Sequence record: NC_052659.1
DNA length: 64,000 nucleotides
Reading direction: 5' to 3' (one strand)
Source: Escherichia phage nieznany
Of this stretch, positions 15,798 to 63,991 are shown in pieces (positions within the stretch are counted from its first letter, which is position 1; each line of letters begins with the position of its first letter). Both the position numbers and the translations under genes were made by a program. The notes below the pieces were generated by a model. That model did not search any database. It saw only the letters and a program-made list of their open reading frames with translations, and was not told the origin of the DNA.

Positions 15798-15825
15798 TTG
15801 ACATAGTTCTTAAAAAGAGTAAGAT
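15798..15825 (+). promoter_or_regulatory. sigma70-like promoter (TTGACA-16-TAAGAT)
   Basis: -35 15798-15803, -10 15820-15825; followed by a GC hairpin in the leader and the terC-like gene. Confidence 0.55.
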
Positions 15826-30049: not shown

Positions 30050-30078
30050 TTGACAACTTTGCGGAAGGGACTTATACT
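30050..30078 (+). promoter_or_regulatory. sigma70-like promoter (TTGACA-17-TATACT)
   Basis: -35 30050-30055, -10 30073-30078; upstream of ATG 30112. Confidence 0.55.
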
Positions 30079-30552: not shown

Positions 30553-31347
30553 TTGAGCAAGTTGAACACACTTGATCAATATTACACTAACCCCGCTTAT
30601 GCGGGGTTCTTATGTGATAAGATCAAAGAAATTTTTGGAGAGGAAGCTAACTACGTAGAACCATCTGCGGGAGAAGGAGCTTTCTCTTCTTGTTTTAAAA
30701 ACATAACTTCTTTTGATATTGATCCTAAGTTTGAAGATTGTATTGAGGCAGATTTTTTAGCTCAATCTGTAGAGTCTGTTGGTAGTGTAACTGCTTTTGT
30801 CGGTAATCCTCCGTTTGGAAAAAATGCTAGTCTTGCCATTAAGTTCTTTAACCATTGTGCTGAAATGTTGGATAACGAAGGTGGTATTTGTTTTATCTTG
30901 CCTCGCACATTTCAAAAAATCTTTTTTGCACACAAACTAAATCCCCACATGCATCTTCTTTACGAAGAAGAATGTCCAAAAGGATCTTTTATTCTTCATG
31001 GAGAACCTTGGGATGTTCCTTGTGTATTCCAGATATGGACTAAACGCAACGAGAAGCGTTCTCCCGTTGTTTTAGGAGAAAATCGACTATTCGTATTAGG
31101 CAACAGTAAAGACTACGACATAGCCGTTAGGAGAGCGGGAGCAAGTGCAGGTAAAGTGTTATCAGAAGAAGATTCTTTATCTGAAGCATCTACCTATTTT
31201 TTAAAAGCCTTGACTTCTGATCTTAAAACGCGTATCATTGAGGCTTACCCGTTACTTAAAGCTGAAGCTAGTAAAACTGCGGGAGTAAGAAGTTTAAGTT
31301 TAAAAGAACTTCAGTGGGTTCTGGAGAACATTAGAAAGGAGGAATAG
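30553..31347 (+). CDS. DNA methyltransferase (amino-MTase, probably N6-adenine)
   Basis: DQYYTNPAYA (motif X-like), EPSAGEGAF (AdoMet motif I) and GNPPFG (catalytic motif IV); TTG start after AAGGAGGA. Confidence 0.65.
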   Translation: MSKLNTLDQYYTNPAYAGFLCDKIKEIFGEEANYVEPSAGEGAFSSCFKNITSFDIDPKFEDCIEADFLAQSVESVGSVTAFVGNPPFGKNASLAIKFFNHCAEMLDNEGGICFILPRTFQKIFFAHKLNPHMHLLYEEECPKGSFILHGEPWDVPCVFQIWTKRNEKRSPVVLGENRLFVLGNSKDYDIAVRRAGASAGKVLSEEDSLSEASTYFLKALTSDLKTRIIEAYPLLKAEASKTAGVRSLSLKELQWVLENIRKEE

Positions 31348-34300
31348 TGAGTAAGTTTACATGGGATATTGAAGCAAACGGATTGTTGAATAATGACACT
31401 ATTGATTATTTAGCTAGTCCTTATCGTCTCAAAGACACATTTCAAATGCACTGTATTGTCTTAGAGAACCATGAAACAGGAGAAATAGTAGCTTTCCACG
31501 ATGGCCCTAAATACATTTTTGATGGTCGTCCTTATGAAGAGTCAGATGATAAATATACATATGTTCTTAAAGAATATGTGGCGCAAGATTACACACATTT
31601 TCAACTAAAAGATTTCCCAGATTTTATTAATCATGAAGGTTATTTTAAAGACAAGCCTGAATATTTGGTTGAAATGGCTGTGGCACACAACGGTATCAAC
31701 TATGACTGGTTGGCTACAAAACTGTTTTATGGATTAGATTACAGTGTTAAATATAACACGTGGGGTAAAAGCAAGGTAAAACTTATTGACTCCTTAATTT
31801 TGAGTAAAGTGTTAAACCCAGATCGAAAGATTGAGGGCAAATCAGGACATAGTTTGGCAGCACTTTCTCGAAAGGCAGGTGGGGATGTAAAAATAGATTT
31901 CCGTAAAGAGATTCCAGAAGAAGATCGATTTAAGACTTTTGCTGCGGATATGCTTTATTACTGTATCTATGACAACAAAGCCAATACGAGCGTATATAAT
32001 TACCTTATGGAAGAGTGGGGTGATTATGATAAATGGGAAGGTCCATTTGAACTTGAACAACGTGTAGCAGACATTATTACACGCCAGGAACACCGTGGGT
32101 TTGCTTTTAACATGAAGCAAGCAGAAGAGAACCTTGCTTTTTTAGATGCAGAAATGGAGCGTCTTCGTTTACTCGTTGAGCCTATTTTGCCACCTAAACC
32201 AGCAACAAAAGGTTATCTTAAGGCTTTTATTCCACCTAAGTTGCAAATTAAAAAGAACTTAGAGCCAACTAACCATATGATCAATTTTGCTAAGAAACAT
32301 GATGGTCATTTGGAAGAGAGGGATGGAGATTGGTGGTTAGTGATGTTGGGGAAAGAGTGGAAACTGCCAGTTGCAGCAGATGAGCCTTTGTGTGATCCTA
32401 ATATCCCTGCAACATTGAACGATACAACCCATATTAAAAACTGGCTTGTAGGATTAGGTTGGGTACCATCGGAATATAAAGATAAAGATTTGACTCTTAA
32501 ATCTGGCACCAAGATTAAAAAGAGTGAGGAAGAACTTCAGAAAGGTATTCGAGCTTACGTTGAGCAAACTCTATCTTCTAATTTTTGTCAAGACCGTTGT
32601 GATCATCTGGAGTGCACACCGGAAACCTTGGAAAGGAAGATTCAAGAGCGTATAGCAAAAGGTAAAGGTCGAGGTCTTAAAGTATTGACTAACCCATGTT
32701 TTACCAAAGGTCAGGAAAAAGAAATCTGTCCTAACCTGCAAGCTTTGGGTGAGAAATTTCCTTATGCTACACAGATTGTAGAATACTTAACGTATAAACA
32801 CCGTAGGAACTCTATTTTAGGTGGTGGTGCCGATTGGGAAGAAGACGAAGAAGATCAAGAATACAACAAAGGTTTCTTGGCAGCAGTTCGTGCAGATGGA
32901 CGTATACCTACGCCAGCGGCTACATGCGATGCAGCAACCTCTCGTATGAAGCATAGGTCTGTAGCCAATATTCCTCGTGTTACCTCTTTGTTTGGATGGC
33001 AGATGCGTAACCTGTTTGGTGTAGAGGTTCCTAAATACTTCCAGATTGGTTATGACTTTGATTCATTAGAGGCGAAGATTGAGTCGCATTATACGTGGAG
33101 ATATGATAATCCTGATCATGCTTACTGTAATGCACTTCTGTTAGAAAAACCAAACGATGTGCATACTATGATGGCAAAACATATTACTGATATTATTGGA
33201 CGTAAGTTTGAACGTGGTCCTGCTAAGAGCGTTAAATACGGTTGTGTACCTGTAGATAATACGGAAGTGTTAACAAGAACGGGTTGGAAGAAACGTAAAG
33301 ATCTTTTTGTAGGGGATGAAGTTTTATCTTATAATACTCACACCGCTCTTTACGAATATACCCCTATTCTTAAGCTGTGGGACTATAACGATGCAGAAGT
33401 TGTCTCTCTCGGTAACAAGTGGTTCAAAGTAGAAGTTACTAACGATCATATGTGGATTAACGCACAGAGAAAAACTATGCGATCAGATGGTAACAATGTT
33501 AAGTATATGCAAGTGGAGCGTAGATCTACAGAGGATTTAAACTCGGAGTCAAACATAATTGCAGCAGGGCGATCTGGTGTGGTGTCTACTCTAACAGTGG
33601 AAGAAGGTCGTTTCTTAGGCTGGCTTCTTTCGGATGGCTACTATAAGTGGTCTGGCAAAGCCAGAAATAAAGTAATGGGTATTACAGTCACGGTAGATCA
33701 AGATGAGAAAAAATTCTTAGAAGAAGCACGTGAGGCTGTGGGAGATATCTTCACATTTGACGAGTATGTATCTGGAACGATGCATTCATTACGTCCTAAT
33801 AAGAGTCAGTTTAGGGAATTTTTGACTAAATGTGGCGTTGAAGTGGGTCAAAATAAGCACGAAGTGGACTGGTCTACATTAATTGCTAATCAAGGTCAAG
33901 CTGTGTTGGAAGCATTCTTAGAGGCATTCTGGATGGCAGATGGTCATAAGCGTCCAAACGGCAGTCTTGTTATCCGTCAAAAGAAAGGTAAGATTAGCGA
34001 CGCTGTTTCTTTGGCTATCAATATGACAGGTAATATTGCGTATGGTTCTGTTCAAAAAGATGGCATGTTAACGTTGGCAATCAATAACGGACAAACTATT
34101 TCAGGACAGAGGTTGACAAAAGCTTTTTCACGAGTAACAGATGTATTCTGTATCTCAACCAAGAATGAATCTTTTGTTATGCGTCAGAATGGTTTTATCA
34201 CGTTGACAGGTAACTGCACGTACGGCGCTCAAGCAGACAAGGTTGCTAAAACAATTGGTAGCGATAAATACACAGGGCAACTGGTGTTCGATGCTTTCTG

Positions 34301-34916
34301 GGAAGCTGCATTCCCACTGGCGCGTCTTAAAGAACGTTTAAACGATTTCTGGGTTAAGACTGGTAAACAGTATGTTTTGGGTATTGACGGTCGTAAGGTT
34401 CCTACTCGTTCTGCTCACGCGATTCTTAACTCTCTGTTCCAAAGTGGTGGGGTTATCTGTGCTAAACGTGCAATGGTTATTTATGACGACATGATCGAAG
34501 AAGAAGGGCTAAGTGTTGACTTCTTTAAAGATGACTGGAAGAATAAAGACTTCGTGCAACAAATGATTGCATATCACGATGAAGCCCAGCTTGAAGTTTC
34601 TCGTAACCTTGTAGAATTTAAATGGTTTTCACCTGAATCATTAGGTTGGAAGAAAGTAGACGATCCTGAAGAACAAAAGAAAATTGATAAAGAATGCCTT
34701 GCTAAAGTTGAAGAATGGAAGCATAATAAGGAAAAAGAGACAGGGCAAATTTGGGCTAACATTCATGAATCTCCCAAAGGTGGATGGTTTACAGCCTATA
34801 GTCGGGCAGGTGAACTTGCTGCTTTAGCTGTTACTAAGGCTGGAGAATTTTACAATCTTAATGTTCAGCTTACTGCCGGATATGATGTGGGTAACTCCTG
34901 GGCGAGCTGCCATTAG
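31347..34916 (+). CDS. family A DNA polymerase, T7 gp5-like, containing an intein
   Basis: N-terminal exo motif WDIEANGLL (T7 gp5: SDIEANALL), C-terminal ..GNSWASCH (T7: GPNWAICH), polymerase motifs throughout; 1189 aa because of a 324-aa insertion; GTG start. Confidence 0.9.
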   Translation: MSKFTWDIEANGLLNNDTIDYLASPYRLKDTFQMHCIVLENHETGEIVAFHDGPKYIFDGRPYEESDDKYTYVLKEYVAQDYTHFQLKDFPDFINHEGYFKDKPEYLVEMAVAHNGINYDWLATKLFYGLDYSVKYNTWGKSKVKLIDSLILSKVLNPDRKIEGKSGHSLAALSRKAGGDVKIDFRKEIPEEDRFKTFAADMLYYCIYDNKANTSVYNYLMEEWGDYDKWEGPFELEQRVADIITRQEHRGFAFNMKQAEENLAFLDAEMERLRLLVEPILPPKPATKGYLKAFIPPKLQIKKNLEPTNHMINFAKKHDGHLEERDGDWWLVMLGKEWKLPVAADEPLCDPNIPATLNDTTHIKNWLVGLGWVPSEYKDKDLTLKSGTKIKKSEEELQKGIRAYVEQTLSSNFCQDRCDHLECTPETLERKIQERIAKGKGRGLKVLTNPCFTKGQEKEICPNLQALGEKFPYATQIVEYLTYKHRRNSILGGGADWEEDEEDQEYNKGFLAAVRADGRIPTPAATCDAATSRMKHRSVANIPRVTSLFGWQMRNLFGVEVPKYFQIGYDFDSLEAKIESHYTWRYDNPDHAYCNALLLEKPNDVHTMMAKHITDIIGRKFERGPAKSVKYGCVPVDNTEVLTRTGWKKRKDLFVGDEVLSYNTHTALYEYTPILKLWDYNDAEVVSLGNKWFKVEVTNDHMWINAQRKTMRSDGNNVKYMQVERRSTEDLNSESNIIAAGRSGVVSTLTVEEGRFLGWLLSDGYYKWSGKARNKVMGITVTVDQDEKKFLEEAREAVGDIFTFDEYVSGTMHSLRPNKSQFREFLTKCGVEVGQNKHEVDWSTLIANQGQAVLEAFLEAFWMADGHKRPNGSLVIRQKKGKISDAVSLAINMTGNIAYGSVQKDGMLTLAINNGQTISGQRLTKAFSRVTDVFCISTKNESFVMRQNGFITLTGNCTYGAQADKVAKTIGSDKYTGQLVFDAFWEAAFPLARLKERLNDFWVKTGKQYVLGIDGRKVPTRSAHAILNSLFQSGGVICAKRAMVIYDDMIEEEGLSVDFFKDDWKNKDFVQQMIAYHDEAQLEVSRNLVEFKWFSPESLGWKKVDDPEEQKKIDKECLAKVEEWKHNKEKETGQIWANIHESPKGGWFTAYSRAGELAALAVTKAGEFYNLNVQLTAGYDVGNSWASCH
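33243..34214 (+). mobile_element. intein with LAGLIDADG homing endonuclease domain inside the DNA polymerase
   Basis: Insertion begins with Cys after ..KSVKYG, has block B TNDH, two LAGLIDADG-like motifs (FLGWLLSDGY, FLEAFWMADGHK), ends ..ITLTGN followed by Cys; removal restores a T7-like ..KYG|CTYGAQADK.. Confidence 0.75.
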
Positions 34917-34945: not shown

Positions 34946-35524
34946 ATGGTTTATGATCATGGTGTTTTTGATGGAGATATTACCGTAAGATCTCCTGAAG
35001 GAGTTATGCATCCTGCTTATATGAAATGGATGGCTATGTTGGGGAGGTGTTACTCCCCTTGCCAGCAGGTAAGAGATGTTGCCTACCACGGTGTTACGGT
35101 TTGTGATGATTGGAAGTTATTCTCTAACTTCTATTCTTGGTTACAAACTTGGGACAACTGGGAAAAATTAGAACTTGACAAGGATCTTATAGGAGGGGGC
35201 GTTTACTCCCCTGCTTCTTGCTTGATGATTTCTGGAAACCTTAATAAGTTCTTAGCTTATAGGAAGAAGACGGGGCAAATGGTAGGTTGTAATTACGAAA
35301 AGGATCGCAAGAAATATAAGGCCCATATAAAAGTAGACGGTCGTATTATAACACTCGGACGTTTTGATACTGAACTTGAGGCACATCTTTGTTGGTTGAA
35401 AGCTAAAGCAGAACAACTCACAAAGTTTTTTGAAATAGAAGACAAGAGAGTTGTTCCTTATCTTAAAGCATTGTATAATGAAATGCTTGAGCACGTAGAA
35501 CAACACAAAGAGTGGACACGATAG
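34946..35524 (+). CDS. free-standing homing endonuclease-like protein with AP2-type DNA-binding domain
   Basis: C-terminal YKAHIKVDGRIITLGRFDTELEAHLCW resembles AP2 domains; N-terminal W..M..RC..Y.GVTVC..W pattern recurs in phage homing endonuclease families. Confidence 0.4.
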   Translation: MVYDHGVFDGDITVRSPEGVMHPAYMKWMAMLGRCYSPCQQVRDVAYHGVTVCDDWKLFSNFYSWLQTWDNWEKLELDKDLIGGGVYSPASCLMISGNLNKFLAYRKKTGQMVGCNYEKDRKKYKAHIKVDGRIITLGRFDTELEAHLCWLKAKAEQLTKFFEIEDKRVVPYLKALYNEMLEHVEQHKEWTR

Positions 35525-35904: not shown

Positions 35905-36123
35905 ATGCGTAAATTAGTGAGCTTTAATGTTTCAATTCTTGTTGATGAACAAAATGAAGATGTTATTAAAGGTCTTGCAAATAAGATTGCAGGTGGAATG
36001 ACGGAAGCTGAAGTGTGGGAAGAATGTGCTCGACTTTATGAGGAAGGTGTTATTGAGGTCTTGGGGGATGAGATTAATATGGACGATGTTGTAAAAGTAA
36101 CTGTGGAGCGTATCAATGACTAA
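35905..36123 (+). CDS. hypothetical acidic protein (72 aa)
   Basis: TAAGGAG SD. Confidence 0.45.
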   Translation: MRKLVSFNVSILVDEQNEDVIKGLANKIAGGMTEAEVWEECARLYEEGVIEVLGDEINMDDVVKVTVERIND

Positions 36124-36709
36124 ATCAAAACAAATCAATATTGCCAAAGAAATTCTTACCGTATTAAAGATCGCTGATCCTAATTCTGTCTTGGCTGGCG
36201 GTGCTGTTCGTGATTGGCGTATTCTTGATATTGCTGGACGTGATCTGGATTTCTATACATCCCTTCCTGCACATCGGACTGAAGAACAAATACAAGGATT
36301 AATTGCATCTGCTTTAATGGGAACCAATATTCGTAAACTAGGAAACAAAGAGGCTTCTGACAATTATGAAGGTGTTACTGGTCTTAAACACGTTTTTGAG
36401 TTTGAACGTGATGGTCAGCTTTGCAACCTTATGATTATGGAACCAAGCGTAATGACAACCTTTCTAAATGAGTTCGATCTGTCCATCTGCCAGGCTGCAT
36501 TTGATGGGAAGGACTGTTATTATTCTAAAGATTTTGAAACAACCTTGGAAACAGGGATCTGCTTCTTGCACAAAGATGTTAGAGAAGATGCCAAACATGT
36601 TATTAAAATTGCTACACGTTTCCCATATCTTCGTTTTGTGAAAGAGGTTAAGGTTCCACGTCCACCTCAAGTAGATACCAGATTGGAAGAAGATGATATT
36701 CCTTGGTAA
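36116..36709 (+). CDS. minimal Pol-beta-superfamily nucleotidyltransferase (CCA-adding-enzyme-like head domain)
   Basis: LAGGAVRDWRILDIAGRDLDFY carries the GGxVRD...DxD signature of class II tRNA nucleotidyltransferase/poly(A) polymerase heads; C-terminus EEDDIPW. Confidence 0.55.
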   Translation: MTKSKQINIAKEILTVLKIADPNSVLAGGAVRDWRILDIAGRDLDFYTSLPAHRTEEQIQGLIASALMGTNIRKLGNKEASDNYEGVTGLKHVFEFERDGQLCNLMIMEPSVMTTFLNEFDLSICQAAFDGKDCYYSKDFETTLETGICFLHKDVREDAKHVIKIATRFPYLRFVKEVKVPRPPQVDTRLEEDDIPW

Positions 36710-36716
36710 TTAAAGC

Positions 36717-36746
36717 TTGACAATATTAAACATTTTATGATAGGAT
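36717..36746 (+). promoter_or_regulatory. possible sigma70-like promoter (TTGACA-18-TAGGAT)
   Basis: -35 36717-36722, -10 36741-36746; the -10 lies only 8 nt before ATG 36755, implying a leaderless transcript if correct. Confidence 0.3.
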
Positions 36747-36754
36747 AGCATTCA

Positions 36755-37147
36755 ATGACTGAACGTTCTAAGATAGCTGTTGAAACTGTTTATGGAAACT
36801 ATACCAGTTTGACACTAGTTGAGAAAAATGTTGTAGGTCTTGACAACTCTTTTTATTTTCAAATTTTGGTTATTCAAGGTGGAAACAAGAAGCTAACTGC
36901 TCGTGTCGAAACATCTGAAATAATTGAAACCACTGTTACAAACAAAGAATTCATTTCACTGCAAGATACAATCCGAAACGTTATAGACGAAGAAGGCAAA
37001 GCTGCCACAATTAAACTCGGAGGTTTCCCAGTGCAAATAGTTCATTTTCCTAATGGTGAAATTGGAGTTGGAATAGGTAAAGGTAAATACCTGTTAGAGC
37101 AAGATGATATGGAAAGACTCCGCTCTTTCTGTGCAAAATTAATGTAA
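36755..37147 (+). CDS. hypothetical protein (130 aa)
   Basis: ORF without an obvious SD, possibly leaderless. Confidence 0.4.
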   Translation: MTERSKIAVETVYGNYTSLTLVEKNVVGLDNSFYFQILVIQGGNKKLTARVETSEIIETTVTNKEFISLQDTIRNVIDEEGKAATIKLGGFPVQIVHFPNGEIGVGIGKGKYLLEQDDMERLRSFCAKLM

Positions 37148-37163
37148 TGTAGAGGAGATAATA

Positions 37164-38096
37164 ATGTCCGTAATTAATACTGAAACTGATCGTAAAGGCA
37201 AAACCGTAACTTATGCAACTGGTATCGTAGACTACGTCAAACTGGATAAATTCGCTGAACCTAAAACTTTTCATTGGGAAGGAAAAACGATTGTTTCAAC
37301 TCACCGAGCCTCTCTTGTTCTGAAAGAGAAAGGTGCTAAACCAGATGAGAAAGGTGTTTGGATTTCTCTTGGTGACATTGAACTGAAAGAAGGTTATGAA
37401 AACCTGCAAGTCAAAGAAGGTGATAATTGGATCACTATTGAAAAAGGTGTAGAAGTAAGTATTGATATTGATCGCGTTGATAATAAAGGCGGTAAAACTT
37501 ACTACAATACTAAAAAATCTCGTATTACAGTATTGTCTACCGATGGTGTTCAGAAGTCTAACAAATCTTCTGGCAATAAAGGTTCCAACGATGCTGCTCC
37601 TAAGCAGTCCTATAAAAAACGTGATACTGTAGGTCTGGAAACTGGTCACGCAGTAAATGGTGCACTGGAACTGATTCGTAATGGTGTTAAAGGCGATGCT
37701 TTCGATATCGCTGGGGTTGTTCAATCTGCAACTGTCACGCTGAAATCTGAAATTGCTGAATCTCGTGGCGTTGATATTAATGATTATGATCTTGGGGCAT
37801 CTGTTGGTCACGCTATTCTCAATGCTTGTAAAGACCATACCATTAAGACTGTCTCTGTAGAAGATCTGATTGATTCTGCTCGTAAAGTTCTGGCTCTGTC
37901 TGATAAAGTTGCTGCTGCCATTCGTGGTTCCGCAGAACAGCCTAAGAAAGAAGAGAAGAAAGAAGTTAAGAAACCTGAACCACAACCAGAACCAACTCCA
38001 AGTAATCAAGAAGAACCTCCAATGGACTTCGACGATGATATTCCATTTGCCCCTATTGGACTGCAATATGGTCGAAACTTCCTGCATTGCTTCTAA
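37164..38096 (+). CDS. single-stranded DNA-binding protein (T7 gp2.5-like) with SSB-type acidic tail
   Basis: gp2.5-like N-terminus, Gly/Lys-rich linker, acidic tail ..EEPPMDFDDDIPF identical in style to the bacterial SSB C-terminus, followed by a 15-aa extension; GAGGAG SD. Confidence 0.6.
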   Translation: MSVINTETDRKGKTVTYATGIVDYVKLDKFAEPKTFHWEGKTIVSTHRASLVLKEKGAKPDEKGVWISLGDIELKEGYENLQVKEGDNWITIEKGVEVSIDIDRVDNKGGKTYYNTKKSRITVLSTDGVQKSNKSSGNKGSNDAAPKQSYKKRDTVGLETGHAVNGALELIRNGVKGDAFDIAGVVQSATVTLKSEIAESRGVDINDYDLGASVGHAILNACKDHTIKTVSVEDLIDSARKVLALSDKVAAAIRGSAEQPKKEEKKEVKKPEPQPEPTPSNQEEPPMDFDDDIPFAPIGLQYGRNFLHCF

Positions 38097-38562
38097 GGTT
38101 TGTTTCAAGTGTGGGGTGTTAAAGCCCCTCACTGAATTTTACAAACATAAAGCTATGGCTGACGGTCACGTCAATAAATGCAAGGAATGTAATAAGAAAG
38201 ATGTTAAACAGAATCGTAAAGATAAATCTGAATATTACAAAGAGTATGATAAAAACAGAGATCAGACCCCAGAGCGCAAAGCTTTGAAAGAGGCTTACGC
38301 AAAAGGGAAAGGTAAAAATAAGGCCAATGAAGCTAAGAAACGTTACATCGAAAAGAATCCGAAAAAACGTTCTGCTCATATAGCTGTAGGTAACGCACTC
38401 CGAGATGGAAAGTTAGTAAAACAACCTTGCCAAGTGTGTGGGTCTGTTGATGTTCATGCTCATCATTGTGATTATGATAAACCGTTAGATGTTCTATGGC
38501 TGTGTCCTCTACACCATGAGGCTTGGCATCAAGAACATGGTGAAGGATTGAACGCTGAATAA
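38068..38562 (+). CDS. HNH endonuclease (free-standing homing-endonuclease type)
   Basis: CQVCGSVDVHAHHCDYDKPLDVLWLCPLHHEAWH is a canonical HNH/zinc-finger core; likely start ATG 38068 overlapping the 3' end of the SSB ORF. Confidence 0.7.
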   Translation: MVETSCIASKVCFKCGVLKPLTEFYKHKAMADGHVNKCKECNKKDVKQNRKDKSEYYKEYDKNRDQTPERKALKEAYAKGKGKNKANEAKKRYIEKNPKKRSAHIAVGNALRDGKLVKQPCQVCGSVDVHAHHCDYDKPLDVLWLCPLHHEAWHQEHGEGLNAE

Positions 38563-38569
38563 AAGAAAA

Positions 38570-38595
38570 GGGAACCTTTACGGGTTCCCTTTTTT
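38570..38595. terminator. bidirectional rho-independent terminator at the convergence point
   Basis: GGGAACC-TTTACG-GGTTCCC hairpin flanked by an A-tract upstream and TTTTTT downstream; sits between the last rightward gene and the last leftward gene. Confidence 0.65.
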
Positions 38596-38596
38596 A

Positions 38597-41272
38597 TTAG
38601 TCGTAATATTTCAAACCTGTAATGAACTTCGATCCCCAATCCGCACTTGCGGCGGTGAACGTCAACATCCAAGTTGTAGCTGTACCAGTGAAGACCTCTC
38701 GTTGCACAGTACCATCAGTGTGGTAAATGTCCACGCCAGTATGTCCATTCTTAGGAATAGTGAAGGTAACAGCACTGGTAGTGTCTCGTGCATAAGAACA
38801 AACAAATGGTGTCCCCGCCCAAACTGGATTTGTCATATCACCCATCTCAAGCTGTGGAACCCAAGCAATAAGACCTGCCGTACCATCTCCTGCGAAAGTG
38901 TCTGATCCACTTGCATTCAAAGCTATAATCTCATAGGTTATAGATGCTTGTTTGGCAACTGTCACTTTGTGTAGAATTACACGATACCAACCATTCCCCA
39001 TATCGATTATGTTTGCATCTGCACCTGTAAATGTTCCAGCTACAAGATCATAAGTCCCTTCGTTAATCTCATCTCCTGAAGTCAATTTGAGTTTCACTTT
39101 AGTGATCCCGTCTGGCTTCAAGAATACGGATGCCGCCCAGTGCTTACCTGCTGTAATATCAGAAGCTGTATTCACTGCTGATAAAATATGTTGTCCTGAA
39201 GTTGTAGAAGGTGTTAACTTGTAAGTGTTAGCCGTAGTTCCAACCGGAGAGTTGATTGTTGATGCTGTGACTGTCAAGTTCGTCTTCAACCACGGGGAAG
39301 CTGTTGTCAAGTTATTGTTGATAAAGATATGTGTACGGTTGGCTGCTACAACACGTCTACCTTGTGGAGTTGTACCAACATATTCTAAAGGTGCTACGGG
39401 AGCAGAACTCTCTGTAGGTACAAGGATATCTCCAGAAGCCCTGGCATAACGGTTACTCCTGTTGACCTTTACATCCGTTGGAATAGTTTCTTGCGTCAAA
39501 TCATAGTCCATCACAATCACCACAGCATTCACTGCGAGATAAGAACTATCTTCGGCAGTTACCACACCTTGATAAGTTGCTCTACAACCGATACGACAAT
39601 CCCCATCAGCAACCGCTGTAATAACGCCTGTAACGGGGTCAACTGTTGCTACCGTAGGGTCATTAGAGAAATACTCAACAACCATACCAGGTAAGCTTGC
39701 TGCTCCTGTTGGCGTTATTTCTGCTACCATTGTTTGTGTTGTTCCTACATCCATCGCAGATAAGCTAGGGGTGTAAACGCTCAATGTTGAAGCATATCCT
39801 CCAGAGGTATCTGATAAAGTTGTTCCTTCAGCGTTTAAGGCTGTCATACCTGCATCAAAACCACCTTCTGCATGGAAAGTCATTAAACCAGTAGATGATA
39901 TTGTCATGTTTGCAGGGGCAGAAGAAGTGTATTTAATATTGAAAAGTTTACCTCCTTCTGGGCTAACAGAATGTGTCAACTGTTTAGTTCCACCTACAAT
40001 ACAAATTCCTAAAGAATCTGTAGTTAAGTCAGTTGCCAGAATATCACCCGTAATCACGGAGCTTGCTATTGGTGTGAATTTATTATAGTTTAGACCGCTA
40101 TTGAACAGATACGAGGCTTTCCCATCTTTCCAAATACCGGAATAATACATATCTCCATTATAAACGAAAAAGGTTCCTTGATAACCTAATTGGTTAGTAA
40201 CATCCATATTCAGCGTATGAACGCTTGTGAGCTTGTTTATATCCCAGGAACCCACTCCTTCAGGTTTAACTGGTTTTCCCACTTGAAGTGGATCTCCGCT
40301 CGCAGAATCATACCCCAAACCTAAGTTTGCAGTGTAGTTCTTACCAATAGCCCACAAGGAATTATTGATCCCAACGAAAAAAGAGTGGCGGCTTGGTGGA
40401 AATTTCCATGTTGAGAAACCTGCTGCAAAGGTATTCAGTTTAGTATAGGTTGTTTCTGTATTAGATCTAACATATAAGTAGTTTACTGCACCCGTGCCAC
40501 CGGAGGTATCTCCTACAACTATTGTCTGGGAAACTGTATTGATGTAATCTTTGACATACACTGTTTCAGTAGCGGATATCTTGGCATTGACAAAAGCTGT
40601 TGTTGTGTTATTATTACCTGCTAAACCTTTACTAGCTCCACAAACACGCAAGGTTCCCACATTGTTGACATAAGAGCATTGGTTGTAACCTGCATCAAAA
40701 GCAACTGCTGCACTTGTTATCTGACGAGGAGTAGAAACTTCGTTAGTAGTACTTGCACCTAAACTGCCTACTGTGTTTTGACCAGATCCGTAAAGAACAC
40801 CACTATTCATTAACCAGAGAGTGTTGTTATATCCTCCCTTAACCTCTTTAAGATTGGCTAAAGAGATAGTCCCTGTTATTACAGATGGAAAGCTGGTCCA
40901 AGTAGTTACACATGCGTCCGTACCACCTGCTGCTATAGATCCTACCAATCCTGCTGTCAATCCTGAATATTGCCATCCCCCACTGTTAGTTTTAATAACA
41001 AAACAACGATCTGCGGTAAACACATCCGCTACTACAGTAGAAGCTAAGTGGAAATTATTGAATCGTGCACTACGAGTTCCATCTGCAATCTCACCAAAAA
41101 GGTTTGCGCCTTGAGTAAACAATCTACCATCATTAAGCAAAATTGCTAAACTGCTGTTAGAATTACCAGCATTATCTGGGTAATCTAAAGTGATTACTTT
41201 TTTAACAATACCTGCTGGCAGAGGAACGACACCAGTGCTGGTCATAATAGTAAATATTGGAATTGGAAACAT
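38597..41272 (-). CDS. tail fibre protein (891 aa) with Ig-like segment
   Basis: G/T/S/N-rich beta composition, internal BIG2-like stretch (VATVDPVTGVITAVADGDCRI), last gene of the structural operon. Confidence 0.5.
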   Translation of the reverse strand: MFPIPIFTIMTSTGVVPLPAGIVKKVITLDYPDNAGNSNSSLAILLNDGRLFTQGANLFGEIADGTRSARFNNFHLASTVVADVFTADRCFVIKTNSGGWQYSGLTAGLVGSIAAGGTDACVTTWTSFPSVITGTISLANLKEVKGGYNNTLWLMNSGVLYGSGQNTVGSLGASTTNEVSTPRQITSAAVAFDAGYNQCSYVNNVGTLRVCGASKGLAGNNNTTTAFVNAKISATETVYVKDYINTVSQTIVVGDTSGGTGAVNYLYVRSNTETTYTKLNTFAAGFSTWKFPPSRHSFFVGINNSLWAIGKNYTANLGLGYDSASGDPLQVGKPVKPEGVGSWDINKLTSVHTLNMDVTNQLGYQGTFFVYNGDMYYSGIWKDGKASYLFNSGLNYNKFTPIASSVITGDILATDLTTDSLGICIVGGTKQLTHSVSPEGGKLFNIKYTSSAPANMTISSTGLMTFHAEGGFDAGMTALNAEGTTLSDTSGGYASTLSVYTPSLSAMDVGTTQTMVAEITPTGAASLPGMVVEYFSNDPTVATVDPVTGVITAVADGDCRIGCRATYQGVVTAEDSSYLAVNAVVIVMDYDLTQETIPTDVKVNRSNRYARASGDILVPTESSAPVAPLEYVGTTPQGRRVVAANRTHIFINNNLTTASPWLKTNLTVTASTINSPVGTTANTYKLTPSTTSGQHILSAVNTASDITAGKHWAASVFLKPDGITKVKLKLTSGDEINEGTYDLVAGTFTGADANIIDMGNGWYRVILHKVTVAKQASITYEIIALNASGSDTFAGDGTAGLIAWVPQLEMGDMTNPVWAGTPFVCSYARDTTSAVTFTIPKNGHTGVDIYHTDGTVQREVFTGTATTWMLTFTAASADWGSKFITGLKYYD

Positions 41273-62116: not shown

Positions 62117-63991
62117 TTAACCACCAGTGTTAGATTGTCCACTTAGAGTTGAAAGAGACAAACGTTGGAAAATGCTATTTCCGCTATTTTGAATTCTTGC
62201 ATCAAGAATATTTCCAAACTCTGAAGAAGGGCTGATCGTAACTTTGATAAGATCACTTGGTATTGCTACCGTATTCTCAACAACAGGTTGATTACGAGCC
62301 AAACTTACGTTAGGTGTATAAGCTGATTCACGTAAATCTTCAAGAGGATTACCAAATCCAAAAGCACGTGTCCTTGTTTGTTCTCCTCTCCACATACGAC
62401 CAATATCTTGTGTATCAATACCTGTTAAATTGTACAACCAATCTGCTACAGGATTGCTGTCTCCACTTTGCGTTGCCTCGTATGCTTTTTGTGCTATAGG
62501 TTTATTAGGATCTGTGTTGTCTCCGAATGTATCTGGGAATGTTTCTTTAAGCCAATTGGTAAAAGATCCGAAACCATCTCCCAATTCTTTAGCAAAACCT
62601 CCTAATTGAACTGTTGTCTTACCGAGTTCTTCACCTAAATCTTTGGCAAACTGGTCTAGCACTTTAACGTTATCCAACCAAGAATCATCTTTAGGTAAGG
62701 CTTTCACAAAACCCTCTAAGAAGTGGTTCTGCATACCTTGACCTACAAGCTGAACTGTTGCAGCAAAACGAGTAAACTCTTTAGAAGCATCTATTTGTTC
62801 TTGAGTTAATGTTGCACCTGTTCTTTGAAGCATTTTCAATACTTCATTATACCCTTCGCCGTTTTTACTAAACATACGTTGGTAGTGCATAAGGTCATCA
62901 CCAAGGTTTTCAAGAAGTCGCCCGATTTGAGCAGAGTTCATACCTCGACGCTCACCTTCATTAACAGTAGCCTGAATAAAAGCTAAAGGATCGTTCTGTA
63001 AAGGTTTAAGCTGTTCTGGATTCCATCCAAACAAGTTCATAATGTCATTTATGCCATTATCACCGCCTTTCCACTTCCCTTCTTTCTCATTCCATTTTGA
63101 GGCTAAAACTGTATTACCAAGACGTTCACGAACGTCTTTAATATTATCTATTGACTTAATAATATTTGCAGAGTCTACACCGTTCTGTTCACCCCAAGCT
63201 GTCATTGCCAAAATAGCGTTGGCGTTTGTCTGAACGTTTTCAGCACCACGACTTACAAGTTTAATTCTTTCGTTAGTATTCATCAACGTGTTACCAACTA
63301 CAGAACCACCTGCAAACAGCCCAGCACCTATTAAAGAGGATGCAATCATGCGTGGATTAAGACCTGCTGCACCTTCTTTTAATTGTCCATATCGACGATC
63401 ACGATCACGTTTTTGTTGAGCTAATTCACGCTTACGGTTGCGTTCTATATCTCTAAGTTCACGATTTCGCATACGTATACGCATTTTAGCTTCTGCTTCT
63501 AGCTCTCTACGAATACGGCGACGACCGCGAACCTCGTCTTCTATTTCGGCATTCTTTTCACGATGAGATCTGCGTAAGGCATCTAACTGGTGAGCAAGAG
63601 CTTGGTTCATACGTTGAAGAGTTATTTCACCCTTTTTGTATTGCTCTACAGCTTTACCCATAACGTCCCTAGCTTCTTGCATAGCACCAGGACTGGCTTT
63701 ACTAAATGCTCTTGCTCTGTAGTTAAAGTTCTGCAAACGAAGATTACCTAAATCTTCCCTACGTGCTGCTGCTTTAGCTTCGCGTTCAGCAGCTTTACGA
63801 GCTTTTTCTTCTTCTCTTCCTTGCGGGGTTTTAGGAGTTCTAGGTCTACCAGATCCTCCTACAGGAGCACCCGCTCCAGCGTGAGTAGGTGCTCGCATAG
63901 GTTTTTGACTTTGAGTTTGAGCTTTCTTAAGTTCACGCTCAATCTCTTTCATTTGTTGTCTAAACTTGGTCATGTTCATAGTGGGTTGCAT
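62117..63991 (-). CDS. tape-measure-like protein (624 aa)
   Basis: Arg/Glu/Lys-rich coiled-coil N-terminal third, Gly-rich hydrophobic segment LIGAGLFAGGSVVG, long helical remainder; sits directly upstream of hub/spike/wedge genes. Confidence 0.45.
   Translation of the reverse strand: MQPTMNMTKFRQQMKEIERELKKAQTQSQKPMRAPTHAGAGAPVGGSGRPRTPKTPQGREEEKARKAAEREAKAAARREDLGNLRLQNFNYRARAFSKASPGAMQEARDVMGKAVEQYKKGEITLQRMNQALAHQLDALRRSHREKNAEIEDEVRGRRRIRRELEAEAKMRIRMRNRELRDIERNRKRELAQQKRDRDRRYGQLKEGAAGLNPRMIASSLIGAGLFAGGSVVGNTLMNTNERIKLVSRGAENVQTNANAILAMTAWGEQNGVDSANIIKSIDNIKDVRERLGNTVLASKWNEKEGKWKGGDNGINDIMNLFGWNPEQLKPLQNDPLAFIQATVNEGERRGMNSAQIGRLLENLGDDLMHYQRMFSKNGEGYNEVLKMLQRTGATLTQEQIDASKEFTRFAATVQLVGQGMQNHFLEGFVKALPKDDSWLDNVKVLDQFAKDLGEELGKTTVQLGGFAKELGDGFGSFTNWLKETFPDTFGDNTDPNKPIAQKAYEATQSGDSNPVADWLYNLTGIDTQDIGRMWRGEQTRTRAFGFGNPLEDLRESAYTPNVSLARNQPVVENTVAIPSDLIKVTISPSSEFGNILDARIQNSGNSIFQRLSLSTLSGQSNTGG

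Follow-up and report, generated by a model that had tools for sequence, protein, structure and literature searches.

How is a gene read when the -10 element of the nearest promoter lies only 8 nucleotides (nt) before its start codon? The question is raised by an open reading frame (ORF) of 130 amino acids (aa) at positions 36755..37147 (+ strand) of a 64,000-nt stretch of DNA from Escherichia phage nieznany (NC_052659.1), referred to below, at its full length, as the window; the next gene downstream encodes the phage SSB. A sequence-only reading of the locus had proposed that this ORF is expressed from a leaderless mRNA and has no Shine-Dalgarno (SD) sequence. The answer that we favour, with a probability of about 0.5, is a different one: an internal promoter would boost SSB, and translation of the 130-aa ORF would rely on an SD carried by read-through mRNA, the short-leader RNA of the promoter itself contributing weakly at best.

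The promoter can be read directly in the + strand. It comprises the -35 hexamer TTGACA (36717..36722), a match at 6 of 6 positions, an 18-nt spacer closed by the TG of an extended -10 element (36738..36739, positions -15/-14; TGa), and the -10 hexamer TAGGAT (36741..36746), which keeps T-12, A-11, A-8 and T-7; the 8 nt AGCATTCA then lead to ATG 36755. With 10 of 12 positions plus the TG, this site tops all promoter matches between 34 and 40 kb, and both the distance to the ATG and the rank given to the match by the sequence-only reading were right.

Promoter matches of at least 10/12 number 56 in the window on both strands, seven of them with the TG, and at a threshold of at least 9/12 shuffled sequences yield as many as were observed. 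We estimate a chance of about 0.04 that a match of at least 10/12 with the TG ends 5–11 nt before any of about 95 starts. The promoter match alone is therefore not significant, and the reality of the site rests on its conservation. It should be noted that, among the matches of at least 10/12 that lie wholly between genes in 50 kb, this is the only one less than 30 nt from a start codon (8 nt); the other gaps between -10 and start are 30, 30, 33, 48, 66 and 89 nt, and an SD is visible in the 30–48-nt leaders.

Other close pairs of a promoter match and an ATG were judged to be due to chance. The pair at 56589-56560 (- strand) lies inside a 958-aa gene; at 15798-15825 the ATG close by opens a spurious ORF, and the start of the real gene is 48 nt further on; and at 62079-62050 (- strand) an ATG 7 nt on opens a 31-aa ORF, the real gene having a leader of about 52 nt with GAGG. 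This 31-aa ORF (62042-61947) has perfect leaderless geometry, probably by chance, and the real downstream gene begins at ATG 61990 behind its GAGG SD. The terminator acctcgcttcggcggggtttttt and the promoter at 62079-62050 (region 62120-61981, - strand) follow a 624-aa gene at 62117-63991, which we take, as a guess, to encode the tape measure. A further - strand match at 36723-36693 (TTGTCA-19-TATCAT, 10/12), which faces into the nucleotidyltransferase gene and mirrors the -35 of our promoter together with coding sequence, is probably also a chance occurrence.

The phage is a Phapecoctavirus, a phAPEC8-like myovirus of the Stephanstirmvirinae, and positions 36100-38100 are shared, at 97–100% identity, with over 60 genomes of this genus, among them phAPEC8, Mt1B1_P17 and ESCO5. 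Orthologous intergenic regions were compared over a wider range, in the GenBank phages phiWec186, phiWec190, phi92, outra, FKP3, phi1_175008 and 05F01 and in metagenomic contigs that encode homologues of 56–85% identity; individual loci are denoted by L numbers where they have to be told apart. The promoter is borne by 19 orthologous loci from several genera, namely 16 loci with 14 unique sequences and the more distant L024, L025 and L026. In each of the 16 loci the spacer measures exactly 18 nt and TTGAC, TG and TA..AT do not vary, while the sequence of the spacer and the bases flanking the two hexamers on their outer sides diverge; the three distant loci have the same promoter plan with spacers of 17–18 nt, and TTGAC, TG and TAnnAT are common to all 19. 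The conserved positions are those that sigma70 contacts in extended -10 promoters (TTGAC, TG at -15/-14, T-12, A-11, A-8 and T-7). We take the promoter as real because the positions read by sigma70 were kept while the spacers diverged beyond recognition, a conservation footprint that constitutes strong evidence, at the level of sequence, for a working promoter.

For the strength of the SDs, the 20 bases upstream of each start were paired with the 3' end of 16S rRNA, using 76 starts from the independent annotation of a RefSeq relative with 99% identity. SD/anti-SD pairing has a median energy of -9.1 kcal/mol, and the core is at least 5 nt long in 57 of the 76 genes, which bears out the earlier statement that nearly all other genes here have strong SDs. 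The 130-aa ORF was said to lack one altogether; however, the -10 hexamer itself contains AGGA (36742..36745), at a distance of 9 nt from the ATG. At -4.0 kcal/mol it is a weak core, the 6th weakest of the 76, but it has the properties of a canonical SD, being complementary to the 16S 3' end over at least 4 nt, placed within the range of 4–12 nt upstream of the start and conserved.

AGGA is kept in all seven sequences of group A (Phapecoctavirus-type), where the -10 centre is an invariant GG and the next 7–8 nt are variable. In group B (phi92/Klebsiella-type) the -10 centre varies freely (TATTAT, TACTAT, TAATAT, TAGTAT and TAAGAT), and the 10 nt that follow the -10, GAGGACTTGA, are invariant and contain GAGGA 5 nt from the ATG. 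An SD also stands just after the -10 in L026 (GGAGG) and in L024 (GAGGA). Every promoter-bearing orthologue has AGGA, GAGGA or GGAGG, which outside group A is found at positions 1–5 after the -10. Since the GG is invariant where there is no separate SD and the -10 centre is free where GAGGA follows, the SD appears to be under selection; the simplest reading of the alignments is that selection maintains it in all lineages and that, in the lineage of the window, it has become part of the -10. Such an SD is useful only on RNAs begun upstream, so that the ORF would also, and probably mainly, be read from longer upstream transcripts. No RNA structure that hides or exposes the SD was found in the read-through RNA between 36690 and 36800 (z = +0.97).

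Where the RNA of the promoter itself would begin can be estimated from the distance to the -10. Transcription starts prefer purines. On a model promoter, E. coli RNA polymerase uses positions 6, 7, 8 and 9 after the -10 in about 3, 70, 23 and 4% of cases, with position 7 as the mode; starts beyond position 9 are rare, and purine-rich discriminators favour upstream positions (PMC5730371). The predicted transcription start sites (TSSs) are thus 36753..36755 (+ strand), where positions 7, 8 and 9 are C36753, A36754 and A36755 and would give leaders of 2, 1 and 0 nt, respectively. From this geometry we infer an RNA that begins 0–2 nt before the AUG and carries no SD, and we expect A36754, which is preceded by C, to be the likeliest start, giving 5'-AAUG. 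A strict 5'-AUG requires position 9, the least favoured of the three (about 4%).

The distance differs between lineages. The gap between -10 and ATG is 7 nt in one member of group A (L010), 8 nt in the window and the rest of group A, 9 nt in L025 and L026, 10 nt in the nine sequences of group B and 11 nt in L024, which places the A of the ATG at positions 8, 9, 10, 11 and 12, respectively, and predicts leaders of 0 to about 5 nt for the promoter-initiated RNAs. Because the SD begins inside the -10 or 1–2 nt after it, it is absent from the promoter's own RNA in all lineages. Even one nucleotide before the AUG has been reported to inhibit leaderless initiation in E. coli, and each added leader nucleotide costs about 2-fold in Caulobacter (PMC8459731); across the alignments, the distance of 7–11 nt does not track the leaderless optimum.

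The proposal of a leaderless mRNA therefore stands only in part. The promoter appears to be real and its geometry puts the start 0–2 nt before the AUG, with the SD excluded, but a strict 5'-AUG would depend on the position used in about 4% of cases, the sister lineages have the A at positions 10–12, and the SD is conserved. If a leaderless mRNA is understood as one without an SD on any transcript, what is found here is a conserved AGGA and no predicted terminator that excludes upstream RNA.

The nearest upstream sigma70-type promoter that lies wholly between genes is at 30050..30078 (+ strand; TTGACA-17-TATACT); its gene follows at a normal distance of 33 nt, and the promoter would be the source of the read-through transcripts that reach 36717. 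No convincing + strand terminator is predicted between 30078 and 36717: there are two weak candidates, both intragenic, and the candidates in this interval are fewer than in shuffled sequences. The region from 35 to 39 kb gave no match to Rfam families at E values up to 1. The gene immediately upstream, encoding a nucleotidyltransferase (36116..36709, + strand), ends with TAA at 36707-36709. Downstream of the 130-aa ORF, the SSB gene (37164..38096, + strand) has the strong SD GAGGAG at 37152..37157, 6 nt before ATG 37164 (-9.1 kcal/mol), and it is followed by a gene for a putative HNH-type homing endonuclease (38068..38562, + strand), the last of the + strand block, which is closed by a bidirectional intrinsic terminator (38566..38599; GGGAACC-tttac-GGTTCCC and T6).

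Our model, then, is an internal extended -10 sigma70 promoter in the block of replication genes, whose -10 overlaps the ribosome-binding site (RBS) of the next gene. Long transcripts, for example from 30050-30078, would include AGGA at 9 nt from the AUG, and initiation on them would be of the ordinary SD-dependent kind, if weak. Short transcripts, begun at C36753, A36754 or A36755 with their leaders of 0–2 nt and no SD, would extend for about 1.85 kb through the SSB and endonuclease genes to the terminator at 38566-38599. SSB would be translated well from both RNAs through its own GAGGAG, whereas the 130-aa ORF on the short RNA would be initiated poorly, in a leaderless or near-leaderless manner, or not at all. 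The net result would be more SSB relative to the 130-aa protein.

More distant relatives help to place this arrangement. The most divergent of them, 05F01 and L027, have the gene directly in the operon and are without the promoter/SD arrangement. In L027 the gene overlaps the upstream gene and has the ordinary SD AAGAGGG. In the Klebsiella phage 05F01 (L007; 2340-2400), the most divergent GenBank relative, only 4 nt separate the upstream stop from the ATG, and a promoter-like TTGACT-17-TGaTAATAT overlaps the upstream stop codon and the ATG; if active, it would start RNA inside the ORF and could therefore serve the SSB gene only. Among the Vequintavirinae, a sister subfamily, DrSchubert, CR3 and SSE121 have a sigma70-type promoter before a gene pair that ends in an SSB-like gene, with a leader of 27–44 nt and a GGAG-type SD; the first gene of this pair was considered as a homologue of the 130-aa gene and proved to be unrelated. 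As the SSB block is preceded by a promoter in the Vequintavirinae too, such a promoter would be ancestral and the compression of the distance specific to the Stephanstirmvirinae.

Klebsiella-type relatives have an additional feature, a G+C-rich hairpin with a U-rich stretch behind it, which overlaps the -35 and the spacer (for example AGGGGUU-GACA-AGCCCCU) and resembles an intrinsic terminator that coincides with the promoter. It occurs in L006 (2073-2122), L008 (2438-2488), L014, L016, L017, L018 and L025 (upstream of position 1501); the -35 of these loci lies in the loop and stem of the hairpin, and the U-rich stretch doubles as promoter spacer. No hairpin over the -35 is present in the window or in phi92.

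It is possible, though in our view unlikely, that leaderless or 1–2-nt-leader translation, by 70S ribosomes or otherwise dependent on the 5' end, is the main route to the 130-aa protein, with AGGA or GAGGA secondary or a part of the promoter discriminator. Several observations speak for it and weigh against the reading that we favour. In each of the seven Phapecoctavirus-type sequences, 7–8 nt separate the -10 from the ATG, which puts the A at position 8–9, and in L010 an A at position 8 after a pyrimidine would be an ideal leaderless start. The start codon is AUG in all orthologues, as expected of leaderless mRNAs, and structure prediction leaves the short RNA with an unstructured, accessible 5' end, whose first 13 nt unfold at a cost of 0–5 kcal/mol. 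The SD falls within the weakest 8%, group B keeps all ten bases of GAGGACTTGA without change, which is beyond what an SD alone needs, and the promoter is pressed on the ATG despite spacer-region indels elsewhere, which suggests that proximity is selected. The Klebsiella-type hairpins, as terminators, would remove the SD-bearing upstream RNAs by halting them before the SD, so that the promoter's own short-leader RNA would be weightier there. The literature searched contains no experimental TSS, Northern or ribosome data for any member of the Stephanstirmvirinae, and on promoters and TSSs of phAPEC8, phi92, rV5 and the Stephanstirmvirinae it offers in-silico promoter predictions only (PMC3606486). 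On the other hand, group B, L024, L025 and L026 have the A of the ATG past the usual range of starts (PMC5730371), and one extra 5' nucleotide is inhibitory in E. coli and costs about 2-fold in Caulobacter (PMC8459731). The invariant GG in TAGGAT, as against the free -10 centre where GAGGA is present, is best explained by selection for the SD, and the equivalent promoter of the Vequintavirinae has a leader of normal length.

A designed switch is a more doubtful proposition: the -10 TAGGAT would double as SD, and the choice of promoter would set SD-led against leaderless or short-leader synthesis, tuning the ratio of the 130-aa (Whirly/PUR-like) protein to SSB during infection, where leaderless translation might gain as the host translation apparatus is altered. 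If true, a virulent coliphage would here have a conserved, dual-coded promoter/RBS element. We consider it improbable that the site plays no part as a promoter in infection. It might be kept as an SD together with a protein-binding or termination signal, or host sigma70 might be shut off earlier, the ORF being simply an SD-poor operon gene; such a view agrees with the abundance of 10/12 matches in an A+T-rich genome (counts at or below the shuffle expectation), with 05F01 and L027, which manage without the arrangement, and with the mention, for related phages, of an Srd-like anti-sigma homologue and a possible T4-late-like motif (PMC3606486). It does not explain why exactly the positions that sigma70 reads, at a spacing of 17–18 nt, were kept between diverged spacers, and the same plan recurs in the window as TTGACA-18-TGtTACAAT at 62079-62050 (- strand), directly after a terminator and before an ordinary leader of about 52 nt with GAGG. 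Hardly credible, finally, is a mis-assigned start codon, which would make the closeness of the promoter irrelevant and is suggested by the weak SD only. An in-frame TAG stands at 36746-48, upstream of ATG 36755, further on in frame the possible starts are only TTG at codons 19 and 38, both without an SD, and homologues of 129–144 aa align from Met1, sharing R4, K6, E10 and Y13 without exception and showing synonymous substitutions within codons 2–15. No alternative start is credible on these grounds; comparison of the homologues indicates that ATG 36755 is the correct one.

The 130-aa ORF corresponds to gp115 of Mt1B1_P17 and gp157 of phi92 and belongs to phrog_16560, a PHROGs family of unknown function; the family is tiny, 1.84 billion proteins having yielded only 18 representatives at 50% identity. 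A Pfam search gave no match, and a sequence search of the PDB gave only matches with E > 0.06. A confident AlphaFold model built with 19 homologues (predicted local distance difference test, pLDDT, 89.7; predicted template modelling score, pTM, 0.82) shows a beta4-alpha double repeat, that is, two beta-beta-beta-beta-alpha repeats, with strands (E) and helices (H) at E5-12, E16-23, E33-40, E45-51, (E57-61), H63-77, E83-88, E91-97, E103-107, E110-114 and H116-128. The top Foldseek matches in the PDB are repeats I-II of PUR-alpha, with E 3e-3 and a probability of 0.98 but TM scores of only 0.3–0.4; WHY2 is also listed. A Whirly/PUR-like fold that binds single-stranded nucleic acid is thus a lead from structure prediction and not an assignment. 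If the lead holds, the gene that always precedes SSB would encode a second single-stranded nucleic-acid binder.

The gene order around the ORF is that of RefSeq Mt1B1_P17: nucleotidyltransferase, hypothetical protein gp115, SSB, endonuclease and then tail genes in the opposite orientation. SSB ends exactly at ...DFDDDIPF in 12 of 16 relatives, like the C-terminal tip of E. coli SSB. In the window the acidic DFDDDIPF motif is followed by a 15-aa extension, APIGLQYGRNFLHCF (38049-38093), which is identical in Mt1B1_P17, phi92 and outra. Its DNA differs between the window and phi92 at 6 positions, all synonymous in the SSB frame, while the rest of the protein is about 63% identical; the synonymous-only differences argue that this patchily distributed extension, which caps the acidic tip, is coding and under selection.

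The endonuclease after SSB probably starts at ATG 38068 (MVETSCIASKVCFKCG...), as its sequence suggests: from this start the gene takes in a first CxxC and shares DNA, in a different frame, with the SSB extension, whereas the start annotated in relatives, 38155, is without an SD (+0.3 kcal/mol) and removes the first CxxC. No Pfam domain was found in the endonuclease at 38068-38562. Further upstream, the DNA polymerase gene (31347-34916) has a 324-aa in-frame insertion at 33243-34214 relative to the 865-aa polymerase of Mt1B1_P17. The insertion begins with Cys and ends with ...TGN before a Cys, its flanks are 98–99% identical, and it contains LAGLIDADG-like motifs; by its boundaries and alignment it is intein-like, and Pfam did not recognise an intein. 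Between the polymerase and the small genes lies a free-standing HNH endonuclease gene (34946-35524; phrog_953), which is absent there in Mt1B1_P17 and is therefore likely to be a mobile insertion.

The consequences depend on what becomes of the short RNA. If it is translated, the ORF would join the small number of leaderless or near-leaderless genes that are on record, as natural cases, for virulent E. coli phages, and the 19 orthologues would provide natural leader-length variants (0–5 nt) to probe E. coli ribosomes on very short leaders. If it is not translated, a compact genome would use a promoter/RBS overlap to raise SSB, which is needed in bulk, and not the gene that precedes it. The natural series of 7–11-nt spacings is a handy test bed. 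For annotation, the start codon is confirmed, the weak SD at this site is not an annotation error, and the 130-aa protein is flagged as a conserved partner of SSB.

Among known systems, the closest is the cI gene of phage lambda, whose PRE RNA has a leader with an SD and whose PRM RNA is leaderless and starts at the AUG. The likeness of this leaderless mRNA (PMC9031893) to our case is that one ORF is served both by a long upstream transcript that bears an RBS and by a short RNA from a proximal sigma70 promoter, begun at or near the AUG without an RBS, and that the translational yield differs by promoter. The differences are that the phage TSS is predicted here, with a likeliest leader of 1–2 nt and not 0; that the gene belongs to the replication block of a virulent myovirus and does not encode a repressor; that the SD lies inside the -10 hexamer; and that the proximal promoter would probably benefit mainly the downstream SSB gene. 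Organisms with a genome-wide leaderless mode share with this locus a -10 a few base pairs before the AUG, an RNA without an SD and an unstructured 5' end. Their ribosomes, however, translate such RNAs well, whereas translation of this kind is inefficient in the E. coli host, and here we deal with one case among 76 genes, with a full -35, an extended -10 and an SD retained in the DNA.

For rV5-like phages, 33 sigma70-type promoters have been predicted, 11 of them with an extended -10 (PMC3606486). They are of the same promoter class and come from the same broad phage group, and DrSchubert, CR3 and SSE121 have a promoter before the SSB pair as well; in contrast to their 27–44-nt leaders with a GGAG-type SD, a distance shortened to 7–11 nt, with the SD overlapping the promoter, is peculiar to the Stephanstirmvirinae. 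The DRT10 preprint deals with the rV5-type SSB and not with the 130-aa gene. Taken together, internal sigma70 promoters, leaderless phage mRNAs and promoter/RBS overlaps are all known already, and the locus upstream of SSB is, as far as its sequence and that of its relatives can tell, a new and well-conserved instance of them.

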